From an uncultured Candidatus Saccharibacteria bacterium (GTDB lineage: Bacteria > Patescibacteriota > Saccharimonadia > Saccharimonadales > JANWIN01), in the NCBI GenBank assembly GCA_964520375.1, contig CAZFNQ010000001.1, forward strand, positions 5,842 to 59,047: 53,206 bases of DNA. The letters run 5' to 3'. The notes under the pieces are model-generated. The model made no database searches. It saw only the letters and a program-made list of their open reading frames with translations, and had not been told where the DNA came from. Both the position numbers and the translations under genes were made by a program. Each line of letters opens with the position of its first letter. The stretch's first letter is position 1. Below are positions 25,640-37,888 of the stretch, piece by piece.

Positions 25640-26329
25640 CTAAAATCTTTGGTTGGGTGGCATTTGGATGTTGCGACGGTCGTGCCGTCGGCGCAAAAAT
25701 AGCCATAGCCAGATTAATAGCCCTACAAAGATTGCTACCAAAGAAATAATAAGTATCCAGTGATTTGGTTTTTTCGTTGCCGCTGCAGCGGCAGGAGTTG
25801 GGGTTGTAGTGGAGGCTCCCAGCACTTTAAATGTAAAAGTTGCTTTGCCATTTTTAATAGCATTTAGAGTAATAGAAATATCATTTATGCCGTCACCATT
25901 TACATCAATTTGTTTGGTATCACCTACAAAAAAACGGAGTTTAATAGCGCCGGGACTAATGGTAAGGTCAACGTAGTTACTGGTAACTTTATTGATAGTT
26001 ATGCTATATCTGATAGTTTCGTTATTTGCGGTAACGTCAAAATATAATACTTGGCCGGCTTTTAATACCAGCTGCTGGCCATTAACAGAAAAAAAGTTGT
26101 CATAATTATTAAGCAAAATTAGGGAAGTGCTAGAGCTGGGAGTGCTAGAACTAGGTGAAGAACTAGATGGAGTTGAACTCGACCCAGAACAGCCTTGGCT
26201 ATATTTACAAGCACCGTAGTTGCCGCCGCCGTAAACTGCCGCCCAGGCAACTGGCTGCAAAACAAAAGCACAAACAATAAACACAGGAGCTAATAATCTG
26301 GTTATTTTGCCAAATGTCTTAATTGCCAT
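25640..26329 (-). CDS. Secreted protein with a Ser-rich linker and a C-terminal TM anchor
   Basis: Signal peptide ending AWA, an SSSTPSSSSPSSSTPSSS linker, a beta-rich body, then a C-terminal TM followed by RRRHDRR. Confidence 0.55.
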   Translation of the reverse strand: MAIKTFGKITRLLAPVFIVCAFVLQPVAWAAVYGGGNYGACKYSQGCSGSSSTPSSSSPSSSTPSSSTSLILLNNYDNFFSVNGQQLVLKAGQVLYFDVTANNETIRYSITINKVTSNYVDLTISPGAIKLRFFVGDTKQIDVNGDGINDISITLNAIKNGKATFTFKVLGASTTTPTPAAAAATKKPNHWILIISLVAIFVGLLIWLWLFLRRRHDRRNIQMPPNQRF

Positions 26330-26573: not shown

Positions 26574-27575
26574 GTGGCACCGTCACAAACATTTCATGAC
26601 CACATAAAAGAGCTCCGCCGTCGCATAATGTGGATAGTGCTGGCGATTGGCATAACCGCGGGTATCAGTTATGCACTGCGTGTTAGTCTTATTCGCATTT
26701 TGCAAAAACCGCTAGGAGCAACACTTTTTTACACTTCACCAGCCGGTAGCTTTAATTTTATTATAAAACTGTCGACTATTATTGGTTTATTTGTAGCTTT
26801 GCCAGTCATAATTTATCAGTTGCTGCGTTTTATTGAGCCAGCCTTACCAATAAATATTAAAAGAAGTACGATGTTTAAGTTAATATCGGCTTCGTTTTTG
26901 TTGGCGCTGGGTGGCATAGCTTTTGGTTATTTTTACATGGTGCCGATGTCACTACACTTTTTCGCCGGCTATTCCACGGATCAAATTAAACCGCTGATTT
27001 CGGCCAATGAGTATTTATCTTACTTGATGGGCAACTTGACTATCTTTGCCTTGATGTTTCAAATCCCCCTGGTCGTACTATTTATTAACTGGATTAAGCC
27101 TACCAGGCCGCGCAAGCTGCTGCGCTACCAGCGACACGTCATTGTCGGTTCGTTCGCATTAGCCGTGGTTTTGCCGTTTACTTATGATCCTATTTCGCAG
27201 TTTATTGTGGCCATACCAATTATAGTGCTGTTTTACTTATCAGTAATTTTGCTGTGGGCCGCGAATCGAGGCCGCATTTATCCCGGTGAGGCCAGCCCGG
27301 CCGTCAGCCCAATCTTGCCAACACCTCCGGCGCCCTACACTGAGCCAATGCTAGTGCCAGTATTGACTCCAACCATTAACAATAGACCGCGGTCTATTGC
27401 GGTGGAAGGCTTCGTTAGTAGGCCGGTCGGGGCACTACCCCGCCGCACCCAATATGCCAATTCCACCGAGCTACGCCAACAGGTGGCTGGACAGCCAAAG
27501 CCAAGCCACAAATCCTCGCCAAAGCCCAGGCTGTCCATTGATGGCATTAGTCCGCCTTTGACATCTTCAGCATAA
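26574..27575 (+). CDS. tatC: Twin-arginine translocase subunit TatC with a ~90-aa Pro-rich C-terminal extension
   Basis: F.DHI.ELRRR start and a six-TM layout. GTG start with an AAGGAG SD. Confidence 0.85.
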   Translation: MAPSQTFHDHIKELRRRIMWIVLAIGITAGISYALRVSLIRILQKPLGATLFYTSPAGSFNFIIKLSTIIGLFVALPVIIYQLLRFIEPALPINIKRSTMFKLISASFLLALGGIAFGYFYMVPMSLHFFAGYSTDQIKPLISANEYLSYLMGNLTIFALMFQIPLVVLFINWIKPTRPRKLLRYQRHVIVGSFALAVVLPFTYDPISQFIVAIPIIVLFYLSVILLWAANRGRIYPGEASPAVSPILPTPPAPYTEPMLVPVLTPTINNRPRSIAVEGFVSRPVGALPRRTQYANSTELRQQVAGQPKPSHKSSPKPRLSIDGISPPLTSSA

Positions 27576-27907: not shown

Positions 27908-30900
27908 ATGGCACGTTTGCCAACACCTGGAGGTGATGACGGAACTTGGGGGGATATCCTCAATGAGTTCTTAGATGTCGGCCATAATAGTGATGGCACT
28001 CTAAAAGACGTAGTAAAGACAAGTGGTAATCAGACAGTAGCTGGGACAAAGACTTTTAGCGCATCTCCACAGGTTCCAACACCCAATAGTGCAGCTGATG
28101 CTACCACTAAAGCCTATGTCGATGCCACGGCTGGGTTGGGCACTACTGGTGCTACAGGCGCAACAGGTCCGGCCGGCCCCGCAGGAGCGACCGGTAGCGG
28201 CTCTACTGGTGCTACCGGGCCAGCAGGCAGTGCCGGCGGCCAAGGTAGTACTGGCGCTACCGGTGTCGGCAGCCAAGGCAGTACTGGCGCTACCGGTGCC
28301 GGCTCTGCGGGAGCAACGGGTGCAACAGGAGCAACTGGCACAACTGGCGGATCTGGAGCAACTGGGGCAACCGGGGCTGGTAATACAGGTGCAACGGGGC
28401 CGACGGGCTCAACCGGCCCACTAGGCAATGTCGGGGGTGATAGCTTTACGTTTACTTATGACAGTTCCAGCACAGCCGATAGCGATCCAGGCAACGGTAA
28501 GCTTAAATTTGATAACGCCACCATTGGCTCAGTTACTAAAATTTATATTGATTTGCTGGAAAGCAACGGCAGCAGCGTTACGGCTTGGCTGGATAGTTTA
28601 AATAACGGCTTCCTTAAACTTTTTAGAAATTCCAACCCAGCCAACTTTATATTGTTTACCCTTAACTCGGTCACGACTACTTCCGGCTATAGAAAATTAA
28701 ACGTTACTTACCTAGACAACACCGGCACACTTAGTACTACAACTGGTGACACTGTAGTAACATTTGCAACCACAGGGCCTACTGGGCCGCAAGGTGCAAC
28801 CGGCAGCACGGGTGGTCAAGGCTCAACAGGAGCAACTGGGTCCAGCGGAACAGCGGGCGCTACGGGCTCAATAGGAGCAACTGGTGCCGGCAGTACTGGT
28901 GCCACTGGACCAACAGGCAGCACGGGTGGTCAAGGCTCAACAGGAGCAACTGGTGCCGGAACGACAGGAGCCACCGGCCCAACAGGCTCAACAGGCGGCA
29001 GCGGAGCTACTGGGGCGACCGGTCCGCAGGGCACATCAGGCGGCTCAACAACCTTTGTAGGTGATTGGGCAGATGCTACGCCTTATGCTTCAGCTGATCA
29101 GGTAACTCATAATGGTTCTAGTTACTCCTGTACTTCAGCTCATACTTCCAGTCCCTCGACTGAACCTGGGGTTGGGGGTAGCTGGCAAACCAAGTGGCAA
29201 TTGGCAGCCCAGAAGGGCGACACTGGTGTAACCGGGGCAACTGGTGCTGTAGGTGCCACTGGCGTTGGAGCAACTGGAGCAACTGGAGCAGGCGGCAGCG
29301 CCGGAGCGGCTGGCTCTACTGGTGCAACTGGCGCAGGAGGAGGGACTGGGGTTACCGGGGCTACCGGCCCACACGGCCAGTTTGGCGGTAATTCATTCAG
29401 CTTTACTTATGACGATTCAGCGACTACAGACAGCGACCCGGGTAATGGCAAGTTTAAGTTTGACAATGCCACTGTTAGCTCAGTCACCAAGATATATATT
29501 GACTTGCTTGATTCCGGCGGTACAACCATAACCACCTGGTTGGACAGCCTAGACGACATTACTAACAGTGTTACCGGCAGCCTAAAACTATTCAGCATTG
29601 CCGACCCCACACTGTGGGCTGTCTTTAACCTTACATCGGTTACTTCGGCAACCGGTTATCGTAAACTTAATGTTACTTACGTTGCATCAAACTCAACGCT
29701 GGCCACTACAGCTTCAGACACAGTTGTCAGCTTTGCAGTAGCCGGCGCAGCTGGTGCCACAGGCTCAACTGGTAGTGGCGGTGCCGACGGGGCAACGGGT
29801 GCCACCGGTGCAGGTGGATCAGCTGGAGCCGCCGGAGCAACCGGGGCCACGGGCGCTGGTGGTGCCAGTGGAGCTACCGGCCCAAACGGAGCGAGTGGCG
29901 CCACCGGACCGCAAGGCAATACCGGTGGTGATAGCTTTACGTTTACTTATGACAATTCCAGCACAACTGATGCCGACCCTGGTAATGGCAAGCTAAAACT
30001 TAATAACGCAACCGTTTCGTCCGTCACCAAAATCTTTGTTGATTTGCTGGACAGCAATAGCGCATCGGTTACAAATTGGCTAGACAACCTCAACGGCGGC
30101 ACAGTCAAGCTGTTCAATAATTCTGCGCCAACTAATTTTGCAATCTTCACGTTAACTTCAGTAACCTCAGCAACTGGATACCGAAAGCTAAACGTAGCCT
30201 ATTTAGCAGATAACGGTACCTTGGGTACCGGAACCGGTGATATGGTGGTAACATTCGCACCGCAAGGCGCTACGGGGGCCACTGGGCCTCAAGGCGCTAC
30301 AGGTACAACCGGAGCTACTGGTACAACTGGCGGTGCCGGATCCACAGGAGCAACAGGACCCTCCACCGTAGCTGATAACGTTTTTACGCTACAAGACGAT
30401 GGTGATGCTACTAAGCAAGGACAGTTCCAGCTGTCTGGGGTTAGTGCTGGCTCAACTAAGACGCTAACCTGGCCAAATGCTAATGACACAATAGTTGGCA
30501 AAGCTACCACAGATACCTTTACCAACAAAACATTTGATACGGCAGGGACAGGAAATGTCCTTCAAATTAATAGCACAACCGTTTCTGATAAGACCGGCAC
30601 GGGTAAAGTCGTCCTGGATACGTCACCTACCTTAGTTACACCTGCCGTGGGTGCAGCCACAGGAACATCATTGGTCCTATCATCCTTCCTAAACGAGGCC
30701 AAGGGTGCCGATATTGCTTCTGCGACGACCACAGATATTGGGGCAGCGACCGGTAACTATGTACACGTTACCGGAACTGTAACTATTACTGGACTAGGTA
30801 CAGTACAGGCCGGAACCCGTAGGATAGTTAAATTCACTGGCGCCTTAACTCTGACTCACAACGCCAGCAGCTTGATTCTGCCAGGTTCGGCCAATATAAC

Positions 30901-32227
30901 TACCGTAGCTGGTGACACTGCTACATTTGTTTCCCTCGGCTCCGGTAACTGGATTTGTACGTCATACCAGAAAGTCACTATTACAGGTACTGGTAGTGCT
31001 GTCTTAGCAACTTCGCCGACAATCGTGACTCCGACCATCGCTGCAACTGACTGGACAAATGCGACTCACACGCATGCTGGCGCTTCTACCGGAGGCCAGA
31101 TTGCTCACTCAGCATTAACGGGATTAACCTCTGGAGACGACCACACTCAATACGCACTATTAGCCGGCCGTAGTGGTGGGCAGACTCTAATTGGTGGTAC
31201 CGGTTCGGGCGACAACTTAACGCTAAAATCTAGTTCCAACGGTACGGTTGGTAAAGTTATCTTTGGCGCCGCAGCTGCCACAGCTTATGATGAAGTCAAT
31301 GAACGATTTGGCGTCGGTACAGCCTCGCCCAGCTCTGTACTAAATATTGTCGACACCCAACCAGCCTCGGTAAGTTCTTCGCCTGGTACTGACGCTACCA
31401 ATAACCTGGTCGTATCAGGCGGTATAGGTGGTGCTACTACGATTGCAACTACCGGTACTGGTGGACATGGTGCCGATTCATCCGTTACTACCGCTGCAGG
31501 AGGTACAGCCGCCTCGGCCACGACAGCCTCCACTGGCGGCCGGGGCGGCAACTTTACCGTTACTGGTGGACAAGGCGGACAAGCAGGTCTTCTTGCCACT
31601 ACTGCCGTTGGTGGAGTTGGTGGCGGCTTCACAGTCACAGCTGGACAAGGTGGAACTGCTATTGCCGGTGGTGGAGGCGCGACTGCAACTGGTGGAGTCG
31701 GTGGCGCTATAAATCTAACAGGCGGAACAGGTGGTGCAGCAACCCTTGCTACTACTGCTAATGCCCAGACCGGTGGAGCGGTCAACATTACCGGTGGGAC
31801 GGGCGGAGCGGCCACCTCAGGTGGAACAAATAACGGCGGCGATGGCGGGGCTGTCATAATAACGGCCGGGCCTGGAGGTACGGGAGCGTCTTCTGCAGGT
31901 ACCGCCGGCCTAATTCTTTTCAAGACCAGCACCACCACTGGTGCTGCGACAACAAAATTGACAATTGGTCTTAACCTATCCATTGCAGATGCCGCCAACG
32001 TCATACTTGGTACCTCTACAGGAACTAAGTTCGGGACGGGTACATCTCAAAAAATTGGTTTTTATAATGCTACTCCGGTTGTGCAGGCAGCCTCTATCAC
32101 TCCCGCACCGGCTGGCGGGACGGGTGCTGCCGCCGGTGGTTGGGATACAGCTGCACACAGAAACACTGCAATTACGGCAATAAACGATATAATAACTGCA
32201 TTACAAAACTTAGGCTTAACGGCGTAA
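27908..32227 (+). CDS. Giant (1439 aa) collagen-like / tail-fibre-like modular surface fibre protein with no signal peptide
   Basis: AGGGGAG SD. Contains five G-X-T collagen-like tracts, three copies of a ~112-aa module, a CBM5/12-like insert, TLQD..TK..F.LS repeats, GGxGG beta-helix-like repeats and a C-terminal [19 protein letters not shown] motif. Confidence 0.85.
28133..28429 (+). repeat. Collagen-like G-X-Y tract 1 of fibre 1
   Basis: [19 protein letters not shown]...[10 protein letters not shown]: Gly at every third residue with occasional register breaks, mostly GAT/GST triplets. Confidence 0.85.
28433..28768 (+). repeat. Module copy A (~112 aa, [10 protein letters not shown]...DTVVTFA)
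   Basis: Shares a conserved skeleton with copies B-E: F.FTYD.S.T.D.DPGNGK.KF.NAT..SVTKI.IDLLDS....T.WLD.L....KLF......FA.F.L.SVT...GYRKLNV.Y. Confidence 0.8.
28775..29044 (+). repeat. Collagen-like tract 2 of fibre 1
   Basis: [22 protein letters not shown]... It contains a perfect 38-nt direct repeat (28802-28839 and 28916-28953). Confidence 0.85.
29051..29203 (+). other. CBM5/12 (ChtBD3)-like carbohydrate-binding insert
   Basis: [50 protein letters not shown] fits W..Y..GD.V.yNG..Y.c...H.s....P.......W. Confidence 0.55.
29216..29383 (+). repeat. Collagen-like tract 3 of fibre 1
   Basis: [16 protein letters not shown]...[10 protein letters not shown]. Confidence 0.8.
29384..29737 (+). repeat. 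Module copy B (~118 aa, [10 protein letters not shown]...DTVVSFA)
   Basis: Same skeleton as copy A, with a 6-aa insertion ([10 protein letters not shown]). Confidence 0.8.
29744..29923 (+). repeat. Collagen-like tract 4 of fibre 1
   Basis: [22 protein letters not shown]...GATGPQGNT. Confidence 0.8.
29924..30259 (+). repeat. Module copy C (~112 aa, [10 protein letters not shown]...DMVVTFA)
   Basis: Its first ~27 nt (ggtgatagctttacgtttacttatgac) are identical to copy A, and the rest diverges. Confidence 0.8.
30266..30360 (+). repeat. Collagen-like tract 5 of fibre 1
   Basis: [31 protein letters not shown]. Confidence 0.8.
31535..31905 (+). repeat. Glycine-rich GGxGG-x-hydrophobic-T-GG repeats (~5 units of 21-27 aa), beta-helix-like
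   Basis: The units [57 protein letters not shown] and [15 protein letters not shown]. Confidence 0.7.
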
Positions 32228-32240
32228 AGGGTATAATACT

Positions 32241-32468
32241 ATGGTTAATAACGTTCAAGCGGCACTAAACTTAATAGATCAGAATATTGCCAATCTAAAT
32301 GGTACCCGCCAATCCCATATGGAACTTCAAGAGGCCGTTGCGATTTTACAAAACTTAATTGATAAAACTATAGAAAATGCTAAAAATCCAAAGACTGTAG
32401 AAAATAATAAAACTACGCCAGAAACTGCCGCGGTGGATAAACCTAAAACCGAAAAGAAGAAAGTCTAA
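32241..32468 (+). CDS. Small (75 aa) helical, Lys-rich protein between the two fibre genes
   Basis: An AAAGGG SD precedes the ATG, and its stop lies 5 nt before the fibre-2 ATG. The N-terminal half has a heptad-like helical character. Confidence 0.5.
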
Positions 32469-32473
32469 AAAAT

Positions 32474-35422
32474 ATGGCTCGACTGCCAACACCTGGAGGT
32501 GATGATGGGACTTGGGGGGATATCCTCAATGAGTTCTTAGATGTCGGCCATAATAGTGATGGCACACTTAAGGGTGTAGTTAAGACTAGTGGTAATCAGA
32601 CCGTAGGCGGGACAAAGACTTTTAGCTCATCACCACAGGTTCCAACTCCTAACAGTGCGGATGATGCTACTACTAAAGCCTATGTCGATGCCACGGCCGG
32701 GGTAGGAGCTAGCGGTCCGGCCGGATCAACTGGTGCCACTGGGCCAGCTGGTAGCGACGGCGGCCAGGGCAGCACAGGAGCAACTGGTTCGGCTGGTAGT
32801 GCCGGCGGCCAGGGTAGTACCGGAGCAACGGGACCGCAAGGCTTTGATGGTTTCGATGGTGCCACTGGCGTACAAGGAGCCACTGGTTCTGGTGGTGCCA
32901 CTGGTAGTCAAGGCAGTACTGGAGCCACAGGCGTTGGAAGCACAGGAGCGACTGGATCTGTTGGGGCTAGCGGGGCGACCGGCCCTAGGGGTTACGCTGG
33001 CGGTGACACGTTTACCTACACATACGACAACTCTAGCACGGCTGACTCTGATCCCGGAGCTGGTAATTTTAAGTTTGACAACGCTACGATTTCATCTGTC
33101 ACTAAAATCTTTGTAGATTTACTAGATAGCAATGGTACCACCGTTACTAACTGGCTGGCTAATATGGGTGGCGGTGTTGTTAAGCTATTCAATAACTCCG
33201 ATCCAACTAAGTTTGCCATCTTCGCAGTTGACTCTATTACAGCTGTAGGCGGTTATACCAAACTCAACGTTACATACACTACTAGCGCGGGGACGCTAGG
33301 AACTGCTGCCGGTGACAGCGTTATTACTTTTGCGCCACCAGGACCGACTGGCCCTCCGGGTAACGCCAGTACCCAAGGTGCAACTGGCGCCACAGGCCCA
33401 GTTGGAGCCGACGGTGCGACCGGCGCCACTGGTGCAGGCGGTAGCGCTGGCTCAGCTGGTCCAACTGGGGCCAGCGGGGCAACGGGACCAACTGGATCAG
33501 TTGGAGCGGCAGGTACAACTGGTGCGACAGGTTCGGCTGGTAGCACGGGCAGAGACTCTGGCCTTAAGTATACTTATTCGACTGATACAGCTAATAACGA
33601 TCCGGGTAGTGGTAAGATTAAGTTTAATTCAGCCACGCTGGCATCTATTACTACCTTACGCATCAGTGAGACTGATGGCGATAGTAACGATATAGCTACA
33701 CTTATCCAGACTTGGGATGATAGTACTACCAGCTCGGTCAGGACCACTATTACAATGGTCAAAGATGGTTCACCAGGCAATGTCCTGGTATTACAAGTAG
33801 CTGGTGCCATTACTGACAACGGCACCTGGGACAACTGTACAGTTTCATATGTAACTTCTTCCGGTTCTTTTACCAACAACGATACTGTCAAATTGTTCTT
33901 TGCCAGGACTGGTGATCAGGGGGCTACGGGATCGACCGGGGCGACCGGCAGCGCCGGGCCCTCTACAGTAGCCGACGATGTCTTTACCCTGCAAGACAAC
34001 CTAGACTCTACCAAGCAGTTGCAGTTCCAGCTGGCTAATATCGGGAGTGGCTTAACCCGGACTATTACCGTTCCTAACAATAACATTATCCTGCCAACCA
34101 CAACCCAACCGATTACGTTTAACGGGACCACAACCGGTAGGGTCTATGCTCTACCTGATGCCAACACTGAGCTTTTGAGCACAACGATAATCGCTAACGT
34201 TGGTAATAAAACGTTTCTTAATACCAATTCTATGTCCATTAAGGATAATTTATTAACCCTGCAAGACAATAATGACACTACCAAACAGGCTCAATTTGAT
34301 CTATCTGGCATCACTACCGGCACTACCCGAACCTACACATTGCCTGATCGTTCGGATACGCTAGTTGACCTCGGCAGTGCCCAAACCCTGACTAATAAAA
34401 CCATCTCTGAGTCGTCGGTTACGAATCTAACAACCGATCTAGCCGACGTCCAAACTCAGACCGCTCTGCAAGCCGCTCAGATTCAATCAAGGGTGCAGGC
34501 TGATTCCGGGCACTATGTATGCTCAGGCTTGGGGTTGACCGCAAACGCCACTCCTACAAAGCTCAACATGGCCGCCGGTACTGTGTTCATGACTACCACT
34601 GAACTGAATGTTGCGGCACAGTCGGCGATTTCGACAACCATTGCCAGCATGGCGGATGCCACAAACCCGCGGTGGGTGATAGTAGAACTGGACTCATCCA
34701 CAGTTGTTCAATTCAACCAGGGCACCGCTGCTGCCTCCCCAGCCTTCCCGGCGTTTACCGCCGCACGAACGCCACTAGGGTTTTTGTATATCCCAGCCAA
34801 TGCCACAAACGTCGACACCTTGCTCACAACTAATAACGGCAATGCAAAACTAATTGACGCAAGGGTGGTCTACAATATTCTTCCGGCGCGGCGACTCACT
34901 TCCAATACCACTACGACTACAGTAAATAATCCCGCTACTCCGACAACTATGCTCAGTAGCCCGATAACTTTGCCAGGTGATTCTCTCAATGTCGGTGATA
35001 TTTTCAAGGTAACAGCCGGTGGAAAGTTTACGCCCGGCGCAACAGCAGATACCACGGTCCAAATTCAGTTTAGCATCGGTGGCGTCGTTTATTTCGATTA
35101 CACTACAGTGAACTTAACTAAGGCAGGTAATACTACTGACACCCGCCCCTTCCGTTTTGAGTTCGAGTTTGTACCGTTTAGCATAGGGACAACCGCCGTG
35201 CTGAAGTGGTCGGGACAATTCGTTATTGCCGCGGTTGCAACCAGCAATGTGGCTGGATTGGGTGGTGGCACCTCCGGCAGTATGGCTGTAACCAATGGGC
35301 AGACGGGGTTTATAGATAGCACCAATAATCTGGGTATTGACTTGCTGATGGCACGTGGTGCATCGGCGACGAACTCTAGCTTTGTTTTGCGAGAATTTTC
35401 ACTAACGAAATATCCGGCCTAA
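32474..35422 (+). CDS. Second (982 aa) collagen-like / tail-fibre-like protein, paralogue of fibre 1 with a different C-terminal domain
   Basis: Its first ~75 aa are nearly identical to fibre 1. It has collagen tracts, module copies D and E, two TLQD..TK..F.LS repeats and a unique ~330-aa C-terminal domain. Confidence 0.85.
32699..32998 (+). repeat. Collagen-like tract 1 of fibre 2
   Basis: [30 protein letters not shown]...GATGPRGYA. Confidence 0.85.
32999..33334 (+). repeat. Module copy D ([10 protein letters not shown]...DSVITFA)
   Basis: Same skeleton as copies A-C: [36 protein letters not shown]...[14 protein letters not shown]...GYTKLNVTY. Confidence 0.8.
33335..33547 (+). repeat. Collagen-like tract 2 of fibre 2
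   Basis: [30 protein letters not shown]...GSAGSTG. Confidence 0.8.
33548..33904 (+). repeat. Module copy E, divergent ([13 protein letters not shown]...DTVKLFFA)
   Basis: Retains Y.Y..D....[16 protein letters not shown]...I...D........I..W.D and a terminal DTV..FA, but the core is strongly diverged. Confidence 0.6.
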
Positions 35423-36730: not shown

Positions 36731-37888
36731 ATGAAGTTTCGCTTTCATGTTATTAGTTTGCCACATACTCAAACAACAGCTGAGTATACGGCCTGTGCCT
36801 ACACCCAAAAGGTCATAAAGTTTTGCCGGATGATGAAATCGCTAGGGCACGAGGTATATCTGTATGCTTCAGAAGAAAATGAAGCGCCGTGCGATGAGCT
36901 TATTACCATTGTGACTAAAAAAGAACAACGTAAATGGTTTGGCGAATACGATTTCAAACAGCAATTCTTTAATATTGACTGGAACGAGACATTGCCGCAC
37001 TGGGTTATCCCAAATGCCCGCGCAATAACGGAGATTAAGAAGCGTGCAAAGGCGCGGGATTTTATTTGCATCATTGGCGGAGTTTGCCAAAAACAAATTT
37101 CCGATGGCCTGCCAGCCATGATGAGCGTGGAGTATGGCATTGGCTACTACGGCGTATACGCGCCGTATCGGGTCTACGAAAGCTACGCCCAGATGCACTA
37201 TGTCCACGGCCAGCTGCAAAACGATAATGGTCGGTCGTTTGACGCTGTCATACCCAACTATTTTGACCCTAAGGACTTTCCGTATAAAGCCAAAAAAGAT
37301 GACTTTTACCTATATATTGGCCGGATGATTAAGCGCAAAGGCCCGGACATGGCCGTAGAAGTCACCAGGCGGATTGGCGCCAAACTAGTTATGGCGGGCC
37401 AGGGCGTGAAAAAGATTGAAGGTAACAGGATTATTGCTGACGAGATAACTGTTGAGGGTGATCATATCAAACACATGGGACATGCTGATATTAAGCAGCG
37501 CGGACAGCTAATGAGCCGGGCTAAAGCCGTGTTTGTTATGTCCTATTATCTTGAACCGTTTGGTGGCACCTCAATTGAACCTTTATTTTGTGGCACACCG
37601 GTTATAACTAGCGATTGGGGCGCCTTCCCGGAGAATATCCCGCATGGGCTGGCCGGTTACCGGGCGCGCACCTTGGGAGAGGCTATCTGGGCCGCTCAGA
37701 ATGTCGATAAATTAAATCCCGCCAAAATCCGTAAATACGCTGTAGATAATTTCAGCCTAGATAGAGTGAAGTACTTGTACCAAGCCTACTTTGAGCAGCT
37801 CAACACCTTATGGGACGAAAACGGCTGGTACAGCAACTGGCACAGGGGTGTTTCTAAGTACCATCGCTACACCAGGTATTATCCCTAA
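36731..37888 (+). CDS. GT-B fold glycosyltransferase (GT4-like)
   Basis: The C-terminal motif EPFGGTSIEPLFCGTPVITSDWGAFPE fits the E(x7)E GT4/GT1 signature. Confidence 0.7.
   Translation: MKFRFHVISLPHTQTTAEYTACAYTQKVIKFCRMMKSLGHEVYLYASEENEAPCDELITIVTKKEQRKWFGEYDFKQQFFNIDWNETLPHWVIPNARAITEIKKRAKARDFICIIGGVCQKQISDGLPAMMSVEYGIGYYGVYAPYRVYESYAQMHYVHGQLQNDNGRSFDAVIPNYFDPKDFPYKAKKDDFYLYIGRMIKRKGPDMAVEVTRRIGAKLVMAGQGVKKIEGNRIIADEITVEGDHIKHMGHADIKQRGQLMSRAKAVFVMSYYLEPFGGTSIEPLFCGTPVITSDWGAFPENIPHGLAGYRARTLGEAIWAAQNVDKLNPAKIRKYAVDNFSLDRVKYLYQAYFEQLNTLWDENGWYSNWHRGVSKYHRYTRYYP

Follow-up and report, generated by a model that had tools for sequence, protein, structure and literature searches.

The collagen-like proteins Scl, Lcl and BclA carry one terminal globular domain and are not known to have repeated internal beads. 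BclA is not known to have a classical signal peptide, and sgtA presumably adjoins bclA3. BclA3 is reported to be glycosylated by a dedicated glycosyltransferase, SgtA (PMC7157674). The collagen-like prophage fibres EPclA and EPclB of Escherichia coli O157 are trimeric, with collagen rods that are capped and interrupted by globular domains; in EPclB the internal Pf2 bead separates two collagen domains, and the non-collagen domains PfC and PCoil trimerise, PfC renucleating the helix (PMC3368898). The present analysis concerns a stretch of 53,206 nucleotides (nt), hereafter called the window, from an uncultured Candidatus Saccharibacteria bacterium (GenBank assembly GCA_964520375.1, contig CAZFNQ010000001.1, positions 5,842 to 59,047 of the forward strand), in which two neighbouring genes, hereafter called fibre 1 and fibre 2, encode collagen-like proteins with five copies of a module first noticed in an initial annotation made from the DNA letters alone. 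All five are members of a large family of all-beta domains, approximately 115 residues long, that has neither a curated entry nor a solved structure. Collagen-containing proteins of the tail fibre type are a known kind; new are the internal beads of an undescribed domain family and the unusual, prophage-free Saccharibacteria locus.

Module copies in the two fibre genes

Fibre 1 and fibre 2 are paralogous open reading frames (ORFs) on the same strand and together hold five in-frame module copies of approximately 113–119 amino acids (aa), of which A, B and C lie in fibre 1 and D and E in fibre 2 (coordinates in Table 1). The five annotated copies all translate in frame and align over their whole length, from position 1 or 2 to position 115 of the module profile, and a six-frame scan of the whole window with a hidden Markov model (HMM) found no sixth copy; since this HMM was built including the five copies, only the absence of extra copies is informative. 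The order of parts in fibre 1 is N-terminal anchor, collagen, A, collagen, a CBM5/12 domain, collagen, B, collagen, C, collagen and a long distal non-collagen region, and in fibre 2 N-terminal anchor, collagen, D, collagen, E, collagen and the distal tip. Both proteins match tail fibre families (phrog_5073, 1.7e-44; phrog_6320, 9.1e-37; and others), many of these matches being driven by the collagen tracts.

Gly-X-Y triplets directly abut both ends of every copy, so that the description of each copy as bracketed by collagen-like tracts holds. The triplets enter the first strand directly and resume 2–3 residues past the last strand with no linker, for example where GPLGNV meets the module or where VVTFA is followed immediately by PQGATG. 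Contrary to what had been supposed, the copies are irregularly spaced: fibre 1 has gaps of 205 and 62 aa between its copies and fibre 2 has one of 71 aa, and the CBM_5_12 domain falls in the gap of 205 aa. This domain, between two collagen tracts of fibre 1, makes a sixth bead on the stalks, of another kind than the five modules. Counted in runs of at least four, the Gly-X-Y triplets of fibre 1 number 109 and those of fibre 2 number 59, and uninterrupted runs are 6–26 triplets long. Pfam Collagen (PF01391) scored 61.5 bits on fibre 2 and 21.9 bits on fibre 1, the latter below the cut-off of 27.2 bits because its Gly-X-Y runs are short and interrupted. Thr occupies the Y position in 60 of the 109 triplets of fibre 1 and in 26 of the 59 of fibre 2, and Pro is scarce.

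Protein identity is 58–70 % among copies A to D and 26–33 % between E and these four, copies A and E being still matched by BLASTP (E=2e-12); the likeness of the five goes far beyond what chance would give. Synonymous sites are saturated between the copies (proportion of synonymous differences, pS, 0.70–0.92) and the duplications are therefore old. The ratio of nonsynonymous to synonymous substitution rates (dN/dS), where it could be estimated, is 0.07–0.10 among copies A to C, and by this measure the protein sequence of the module is under purifying selection. Copies A and C share an identical run at their 5' ends, of 28 nt (28436–28463 and 29927–29954) where approximately 27 had been given, and their overall nucleotide identity is 67 %, lower than the three-quarters first estimated. 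The run is probably best explained as a small conversion tract or as constraint at the nucleotide level; together with the saturated sites and the low dN/dS it fits the history of old duplications with local conversion that was suggested at the outset.

The module family

No Pfam family (2025 copy) matched the module at E≤1 when both fibres and 75 diverse members of the family were scanned singly; in the Pfam scan CBM_6 matched two of the 75 members, at E 0.007. From NCBIfam nothing matched the module, collagen adhesin models alone reaching the fibres and those below threshold, and a profile of the five copies found nothing significant among PDB sequences, the best match being a legume lectin (E 0.25). 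The module is, as first stated, without a place in any characterised family.

The same profile, used with HMMER on 1.84 billion cluster representatives, matched 7,228 sequences at E≤1e-3, 3,529 at 1e-10 and 391 at 1e-30. As the profile was seeded with the window copies, independent support comes from phrog_35140, which matches copy E at 4.9e-7. In 177 inspected sequences there are 1–8 copies per protein, with a mode of 3, and the 569 copies in these sequences have Gly-X-Y runs on both sides in 163 cases, on one side in 188 and on neither side in 218, the last group including direct tandem arrays such as the eight copies of P0012. Of the 150 best homologues, 118 have one or more runs that reach four triplets. 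Linkers between copies contain four or more triplets in 177 of 390 cases, and many of the short ones are still of the form G-x-x-G (e.g. TGDKGLDGVS). The module is a part of the shaft: in 151 homologues of at least 400 aa the sequence preceding the first copy has a median length of 166 aa and that following the last copy one of 270 aa, and only three of these proteins end within 30 aa of their last copy. Across the 75 diverse members D18, P19, G20 and G22 are nearly invariant, within a motif T-x-D-x-DPG-x-G...NNAT.

Members are found in phages and in bacterial genomes. The tail proteins gp22 and gp23 of Pelagibacter phage HTVC010P have two copies and one copy, respectively, in the HMM scan, and tblastn against GenBank phages found the module in an HTVC010P tail protein and, as one copy, in a Caudoviricetes "putative tail fiber" whose gene follows a baseplate J-like gene at a distance of a few genes. 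The closest matches among GTDB species genomes are in metagenome-assembled genomes (MAGs) of Candidatus Saccharibacteria (76, 63, 55 and 40 % identity), followed by an Acidimicrobiia MAG and single copies in Devosia, Mesorhizobium, Azospirillum, Massilia and others. The carrier gene of Devosia geojensis, with one copy, lies downstream of tape-measure, distal-tail (Dit) and J-like genes and is therefore a tail fibre gene of a siphovirus prophage. The label "unassigned" was thus right in that the module has neither a curated family nor a solved structure, and misleading in that it is not rare, being widespread in phage tail fibres and among predicted viral structures.

Predicted fold and topology

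AlphaFold2 (AF2), run on copy A with the alignment of 75 sequences, predicted a compact all-beta domain with a predicted local distance difference test score (pLDDT) of 94.9 and a predicted template modelling score (pTM) of 0.87, as expected of a globular fold and not of disorder. The model has strands at residues 4–9, 23–26, 36–40, 59–65, 72–83, 86–97 and 107–112, seven to eight strands overall, and a short helix at 50–55. Foldseek found no PDB structure below E 1e-3, the best match having E 0.039 and template modelling (TM) scores of 0.38–0.43; matches such as V-ATPase and HerA domains and a K1 capsule lyase were rejected as homologues because the likeness is that of weakly similar small barrels (TM≤0.43). 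Among the predicted viral structures of BFVD, 47 matched at E<1e-3, TMq reaching 0.91. Almost all of them are proteins of uncultured Caudovirales named "Collagen triple helix repeat", the others being from the cyanophages S-H34 and S-CAM7, Rhodobacter phage RcapNL and metagenomic giant viruses (Marseillevirus LCMAC102, Indivirus and Klosneuvirus).

The topology was derived by mean-field direct-coupling analysis of 470 full-length copies, corresponding to approximately 440 effective sequences. The top couplings are the antiparallel pairs b1-b2, b8-b5, b5-b6, b6-b7 and b7-b3, together with b2-b8 contacts, giving the strand order b1-b2-b8-b5-b6-b7-b3, antiparallel throughout, in which b1 and b8 run in the same direction. 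The N- and C-termini of the module would therefore emerge at opposite poles.

The strongest single couplings are D13-K91, D51-R90 and Y35-K91. The acidic and basic partners are D13-K91 and D51-R90 in type 1 copies and change to N13-D91 and Q51-W90 in copy E and type 2. This covariation of acidic with basic positions suggests that the conserved acidic cluster is largely engaged in internal salt bridges and is not a free site for a ligand. The known calcium-loop pattern is DxDxDG. A calcium loop was considered for the module and rejected, as D-x-D-P-G-x-G is unlike this pattern and the acidic residues covary with Arg or Lys as internal pairs.

The fibre genes in other Saccharibacteria

The fibre genes stand beside a gene of the glycosyltransferase family Glycos_transf_1 (GT1) in at least five Saccharibacteria genomes, with GT1 identities of 53–88 %; a TatC gene lies upstream in two of them and Nramp and MacB genes lie downstream in two. 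The gene order is TatC, a collagen fibre of 1790 aa, a fibre of 1080 aa, a homologue of the SGNH esterase that follows fibre 2 in the window, GT1, Nramp and MacB in L041; a GDSL gene, fibre, a gene of 412 aa, SGNH, fibre, SGNH and GT1 in L004; and fibres followed by GT1 in L003. In the distant relative L008 a fibre of 1160 aa with six modules of alternating subtypes precedes GT1 (53 % identity). The surrounding cellular genes are syntenic with those of the window in L004, L008 and L041.

The starts of fibre 1 and fibre 2 form a direct repeat of 279 nt with 84 % nucleotide identity, so that their first 77 residues are nearly the same, and this anchor is 67–86 % identical across the fibres of other Saccharibacteria. 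The D-type copy is 68–83 % and the E-type copy 79–83 % identical in these relatives. The distal regions are missing, replaced or partly similar in them, and neither distal region of the window fibres has a PDB sequence match. A conserved anchor and shaft with a swappable tip are the classic mosaic of tail fibres, which argues for the module as a shaft element and not a specificity determinant. The E-type copy is 79–81 % identical to three copies in the L008 fibre (L008 8960–12442), from a distant member of the Saccharimonadales whose neighbouring GT1 is only 53 % identical; such a difference would imply very strong constraint or lateral exchange of the subtype.

The fibre 2 tip and the esterase have counterparts on a phage-like contig of approximately 52 % guanine plus cytosine (GC) content, L043 (GCA_034680565.1, contig JAXOUH010033512.1, 8388–11461). 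Its tail fibre of 537 aa has an N-terminus resembling the N-domains of phage tailspikes and fibres and a C-terminal part of 257 residues that is 43 % identical to the fibre 2 tip (aa 732–981), and it is followed directly by an esterase with 52 % identity, with a BppU_N baseplate gene nearby. Tip and esterase have evidently been exchanged with phages, the cassette being kept at one chromosomal site. We propose that the window fibres, the Ape1-like esterase and GT1 make up a conserved, rapidly reshuffled chromosomal cassette of phage origin.

Role of the module

In the reading that we favour, with a probability of approximately 0.55, the module acts as a trimeric bead in line with the stalk. It would nucleate the flanking helices, hold them in register and clamp them, and would determine how long the fibre is and where it can hinge. 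Each copy is predicted to fold alone into a compact antiparallel barrel or sandwich, which the chain would enter at one pole and leave at the other, and one copy from each of three chains would pack round the fibre axis. Junctions without linkers, together with termini at opposite poles, would lead the chain through the bead and place three copies around the axis. The triple helices to be clamped are short, poor in Pro and rich in Thr and may be only marginally stable alone, and specificity would lie outside the module, with the exchangeable tips at the C-terminus and with accessory beads, CBM5/12 among them. This reading is favoured because the non-collagen domains of the bacterial and phage collagens that have been studied trimerise chains and renucleate the helix (PMC3368898). 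The knobs on a trimeric collagen stalk of the initial annotation accord with the anatomy of the junctions and the probable position of the termini; the trimer itself we infer.

Several points weigh against the in-line bead. The trimeric packing around the axis and the clamp role are what we infer from the arrangement of the parts, and the course of the chain from pole to pole rests on the coupling analysis and on our reading of the strand directions. Some members, such as P0012 with its eight copies, are tandem arrays in which no Gly-X-Y run reaches four triplets, and the domain therefore need not act as a clamp on collagen. The DPGxG loop, which is invariant, and the exceptional conservation of the E subtype could mark a binding surface, and a CBM5/12 domain in an equivalent bead position indicates that beads on this stalk can bind ligand.

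These last observations belong also to the main rival explanation, rather unlikely in our estimate, in which the modules are lectin-like ligand binders, low-affinity copies giving avidity for a surface polysaccharide of the target cell and the polar pole (DxDPGxG, DDST, GYRK) serving as a binding or metal site. The near invariance of DPGxG, the clustering of acidic residues at one pole, the E subtype so much better conserved across lineages than the neighbouring GT1, the true CBM5/12 in fibre 1, the resemblance of arrays of up to eight copies to avidity designs, and the carbohydrate biology to which the adjoining esterase and glycosyltransferase point are all consistent with it. However, the likeness to carbohydrate-binding modules or lectins is not significant in the sequence searches, and no lectin or carbohydrate-binding module is among the top Foldseek matches listed from PDB. 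The conserved acidic residues, moreover, pair internally with Arg or Lys. The modules are conserved while the tips vary, whereas specificity determinants usually behave the other way round, the module hardly ever stands at the end of a protein, and a dN/dS of approximately 0.1 gives no sign of diversifying selection. Clearly unlikely is that the modules are passive monomeric spacers or decoration, comparable to Ig-like phage domains, set laterally on the stalk and adding bulk or length. AF2 folds a single chain confidently into an autonomous, non-intertwined unit, the copy number varies freely between 1 and 8 in relatives, and there are tandem arrays without long collagen tracts, all of which would suit spacers; but triplets abutting both ends without flexible linkers force three copies onto the axis, termini at opposite poles would put the domain in the load-bearing line, and strong purifying selection with an invariant motif in thousands of members exceeds what a spacer needs.

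It is very improbable that the fibre genes are the remnant of a decaying prophage, with repeats inherited from a phage tail fibre and no present function. The architecture and the PHROG matches are of the phage tail fibre type, the fibres and the esterase have no export signal, the fibre region is richer in GC (0.50–0.56) than its flanks (0.42–0.47), collagen codons contributing to this difference, and the fibre 2 tip and esterase occur as an adjacent pair on the phage-like contig. Against decay stand the intact ORFs of 1439 and 982 aa, the dN/dS of approximately 0.1 between copies, the 67–86 % conservation of the anchor, and the cassette at the same chromosomal place by GT1 in at least five genomes with no phage structural genes. 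Saccharibacteria are epibionts on other bacteria. A further idea, which remains speculative and on balance improbable, is that a phage cassette for host recognition has been domesticated in them and retained at a fixed chromosomal site, its parts being collagen-and-knob fibres with swappable tips, an Ape1-like O-acetylesterase of the cell wall and a glycosyltransferase. Borne by the cell surface or by an undiscovered phage-like particle, it would serve to recognise and grip the bacterial host; the knob module would then be a conserved scaffold through which phages and epibionts can trade tips.

Other features of the locus

The fibre genes, their parts and the two genes that follow them are listed in Table 1.

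Table 1 Features of the fibre locus (positions in the window; amino acid positions in the encoded protein)
Feature	Residues (aa)	Position (nt)	Strand	Basis and remarks
Fibre 1 coding sequence	1439 aa	27908–32227	+	ORF and translation; PHROG tail fibre families down to 1.7e-44; Pfam Collagen, CBM_5_12
Fibre 1 N-terminal anchor	1–77	27908–28138	+	GxKTF...ATKxYVD fibre motif; direct repeat with fibre 2 start
Collagen-like tract, fibre 1	78–178	28139–28441	+	Gly-X-Y runs with short interruptions, repeat families D1/D2
Module copy A, type 1, GYRK subtype	176–287	28433–28768	+	Profile scan; AF2 model, pLDDT 94.9
Collagen-like tract, fibre 1	290–380	28775–29047	+	Gly-X-Y runs
CBM_5_12 carbohydrate-binding bead, fibre 1	387–426	29066–29185	+	Pfam PF02839, 28.1 bits (cut-off 26.2), E=2.1e-6
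Collagen-like tract, fibre 1	437–495	29216–29392	+	Gly-X-Y runs
Module copy B, type 1	493–610	29384–29737	+	Profile scan; keeps a 6-residue DDxTxxV loop, absent in A, C and D
Collagen-like tract, fibre 1	613–675	29744–29932	+	Gly-X-Y runs; best Pfam Collagen stretch aa 616–670
Module copy C, type 1	673–784	29924–30259	+	Profile scan; 28 nt at 5' end identical with copy A
Collagen-like tract, fibre 1	787–819	30266–30364	+	Gly-X-Y runs
Fibre 1 distal non-collagen region (~620 residues)	820–1439	30365–32224	+	Fibre repeats, Gly-rich segment and C-terminal end; mosaic similarity to relatives
Fibre 2 coding sequence	982 aa	32474–35422	+	ORF and translation; PHROG matches; exact sequence in public protein collection (P0028)
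Fibre 2 N-terminal anchor	1–77	32474–32704	+	Direct repeat with fibre 1 start; conserved in relatives
Collagen-like tract, fibre 2	78–178	32705–33007	+	Gly-X-Y runs; Pfam Collagen E=6.2e-17
Module copy D, type 1	176–287	32999–33334	+	Profile scan; 68–83 % identical to counterpart in other Saccharibacteria fibres
Collagen-like tract, fibre 2	302–361	33377–33556	+	Gly-X-Y runs
Module copy E, type 2, GTWD subtype	359–477	33548–33904	+	Profile scan; phrog_35140 E=4.9e-7; 79–81 % identical to three L008 copies
Collagen-like tract, fibre 2	480–497	33911–33964	+	Gly-X-Y runs
Fibre 2 distal region and tip (~485 residues)	498–982	33965–35419	+	Tip (aa 732–981) 43 % identical to L043 phage fibre C-terminus
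Predicted SGNH esterase, Ape1-like	414 aa	35427–36671	+	Homologues carry PF13472; AF2 pLDDT 87.3; Foldseek Ape1
GT1 glycosyltransferase, conserved neighbour		36731–37888	+	Pfam Glycos_transf_1; 86–88 % identical in L003/L004, 53 % in L008; directly downstream of cassette

The GxKTF...ATKxYVD motif of the anchor resembles repeats in fibre proteins of actinophages and of an Aeromonas phage. BppL_N scored 25.6 bits on the fibre 2 anchor against a cut-off of 25.8 bits, over 18 residues only (aa 35–52), and no BppU-like partner for the anchor was seen in the window. The product of gene 30 of Streptomyces phage ShakeNBake (L038), of 1397 aa, has many GxKTF...ATKxYVD repeats, the motif being present once per anchor in the window; genes 31 and 33 of the same phage are described as lying two and four genes on and encode a glycosyltransferase and a methyltransferase, which loosely echoes the neighbourhood of methyltransferase, fibre and GT1 in the window. 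A specific actinophage link was rejected, as the gene 30 product shares only this generic repeat and has neither module nor collagen. Directly after the last collagen tract of each fibre there is a direct repeat of 81 nt with 72 % identity (30356–30436 and 33956–34036). It encodes GPSTVADxVFTLQDxxDxTKQxQFQL, which looks like a short fibre repeat unit, and a third similar peptide is found in fibre 2 at approximately aa 590–625. Several ORFs of 80–240 aa run across the fibre genes in alternative frames or in antisense orientation (28001–28428, 29677–29919, 31285–32004 and 33253–33891); their products are rich in Pro, Ala and Val, and they were rejected as genes, being by-products of the repetitive GGN-GCN-ACN codon pattern.

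The esterase itself had no Pfam match at E≤0.01 and no PDB sequence match, and PF13472 is present on several of its homologues. Among 33 homologues G9, D10, S11 and D342 are at least 90 % conserved and H345 is invariant, corresponding to the GDS and DxxH motifs. Foldseek aligned its AF2 model with the peptidoglycan O-acetylesterase Ape1 at E=2e-13 and TMt 0.65, the beta-strand insertion being covered. From these residues and the predicted structure, the gene product is taken to be an SGNH hydrolase. Residues 373–414 are predicted to be disordered, and paralogues follow each fibre in L004 and L041. By our reading, the fibre and esterase sequences lack signal peptides, twin-arginine motifs, membrane segments and LPXTG motifs. 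O-glycosylation of Thr in the stalk by the neighbouring GT1 may be put forward as a testable idea because GT1 adjoins the cassette, Thr dominates the Y position and BclA3 with SgtA provides a precedent.

The remainder of the window encodes cellular functions, including ATP synthase, sigma-70, cytochrome oxidase subunits, TatA and TatC, Nramp, a MacB-type ABC transporter, GltX, a sortase and three transfer RNAs (tRNAs). None of approximately 40 window ORFs checked is a phage structural gene, and a prophage context was rejected. TatA and TatC lie directly upstream of fibre 1 in the window and in L041, the fibres themselves having no twin-arginine motif. The TatC gene (26574–27575) encodes 333 aa, of which Pfam TatC covers only residues 9–215, with a C-terminal extension of approximately 120 residues that is rich in Pro and Ser. 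Near the fibre locus, a protein of 229 aa (25640–26329, minus strand) begins with a hydrophobic segment, continues with a linker rich in Ser, Thr and Pro and a stretch weakly similar to Invasin_D3 (E 0.009), and ends in a membrane anchor; it is likely to be a surface protein. A scan for promoters and terminators gave results at chance level.

Comparison with known systems

If the conclusions drawn here are true, thousands of phage fibre proteins and some collagen-like proteins of giant viruses share a domain that lacks a family entry, a solved structure and a described function, and its definition would help to annotate tail fibres in viromes. The module would also be a compact autonomous unit for stabilising short collagen segments free of hydroxyproline in engineered fibres, and the prophage-free locus a testable lead on host recognition by these ultrasmall epibionts or on the exchange of recognition modules with phages. 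Searches of the paper collection consulted here, on Saccharibacteria or Patescibacteria with collagen or tail fibres and on the structure of HTVC010P, returned nothing relevant.

The window esterase shares with Ape1 (PDB 8gkd, 4k3u) the SGNH fold with an insertion of beta-strands that separates catalytic block I from the remainder, but sequence identity is only approximately 10 % and the window protein has no signal peptide. Scl1, Scl2, Lcl, BclA and BclA3 likewise have Gly-X-Y rods joined to a globular domain and Thr-rich triplets. The NCBIfam models for Scl and Lcl scored 56–70 bits on the window fibres against cut-offs of 325–500 bits, on the collagen part only. With EPclA and EPclB the window fibres share only the architectural principle, the globular domains being unrelated; Pfam found none of PfN (PF08400), Pf2 (PF03406) and PfC (PF06820) in the window fibres at E≤1. 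Unlike the EPcl proteins, the window fibres have no coiled-coil segment, and their beads are more numerous, up to four per chain when CBM5/12 is included.

The same domain, by profile and by predicted fold (BFVD TM 0.8–0.9), is present in gp22 and gp23 of HTVC010P, in the Caudovirales collagen proteins of BFVD and in phrog_35140, and many proteins of this family also join the module to Gly-X-Y tracts. These phage relatives have no curated family, solved structure or tested function, phrog_35140 being labelled "unknown function". The window fibres differ from them in that they are chromosomal, outside a virion gene cluster, and in that fibre 2 combines the GYRK and GTWD subtypes of the module in one protein.

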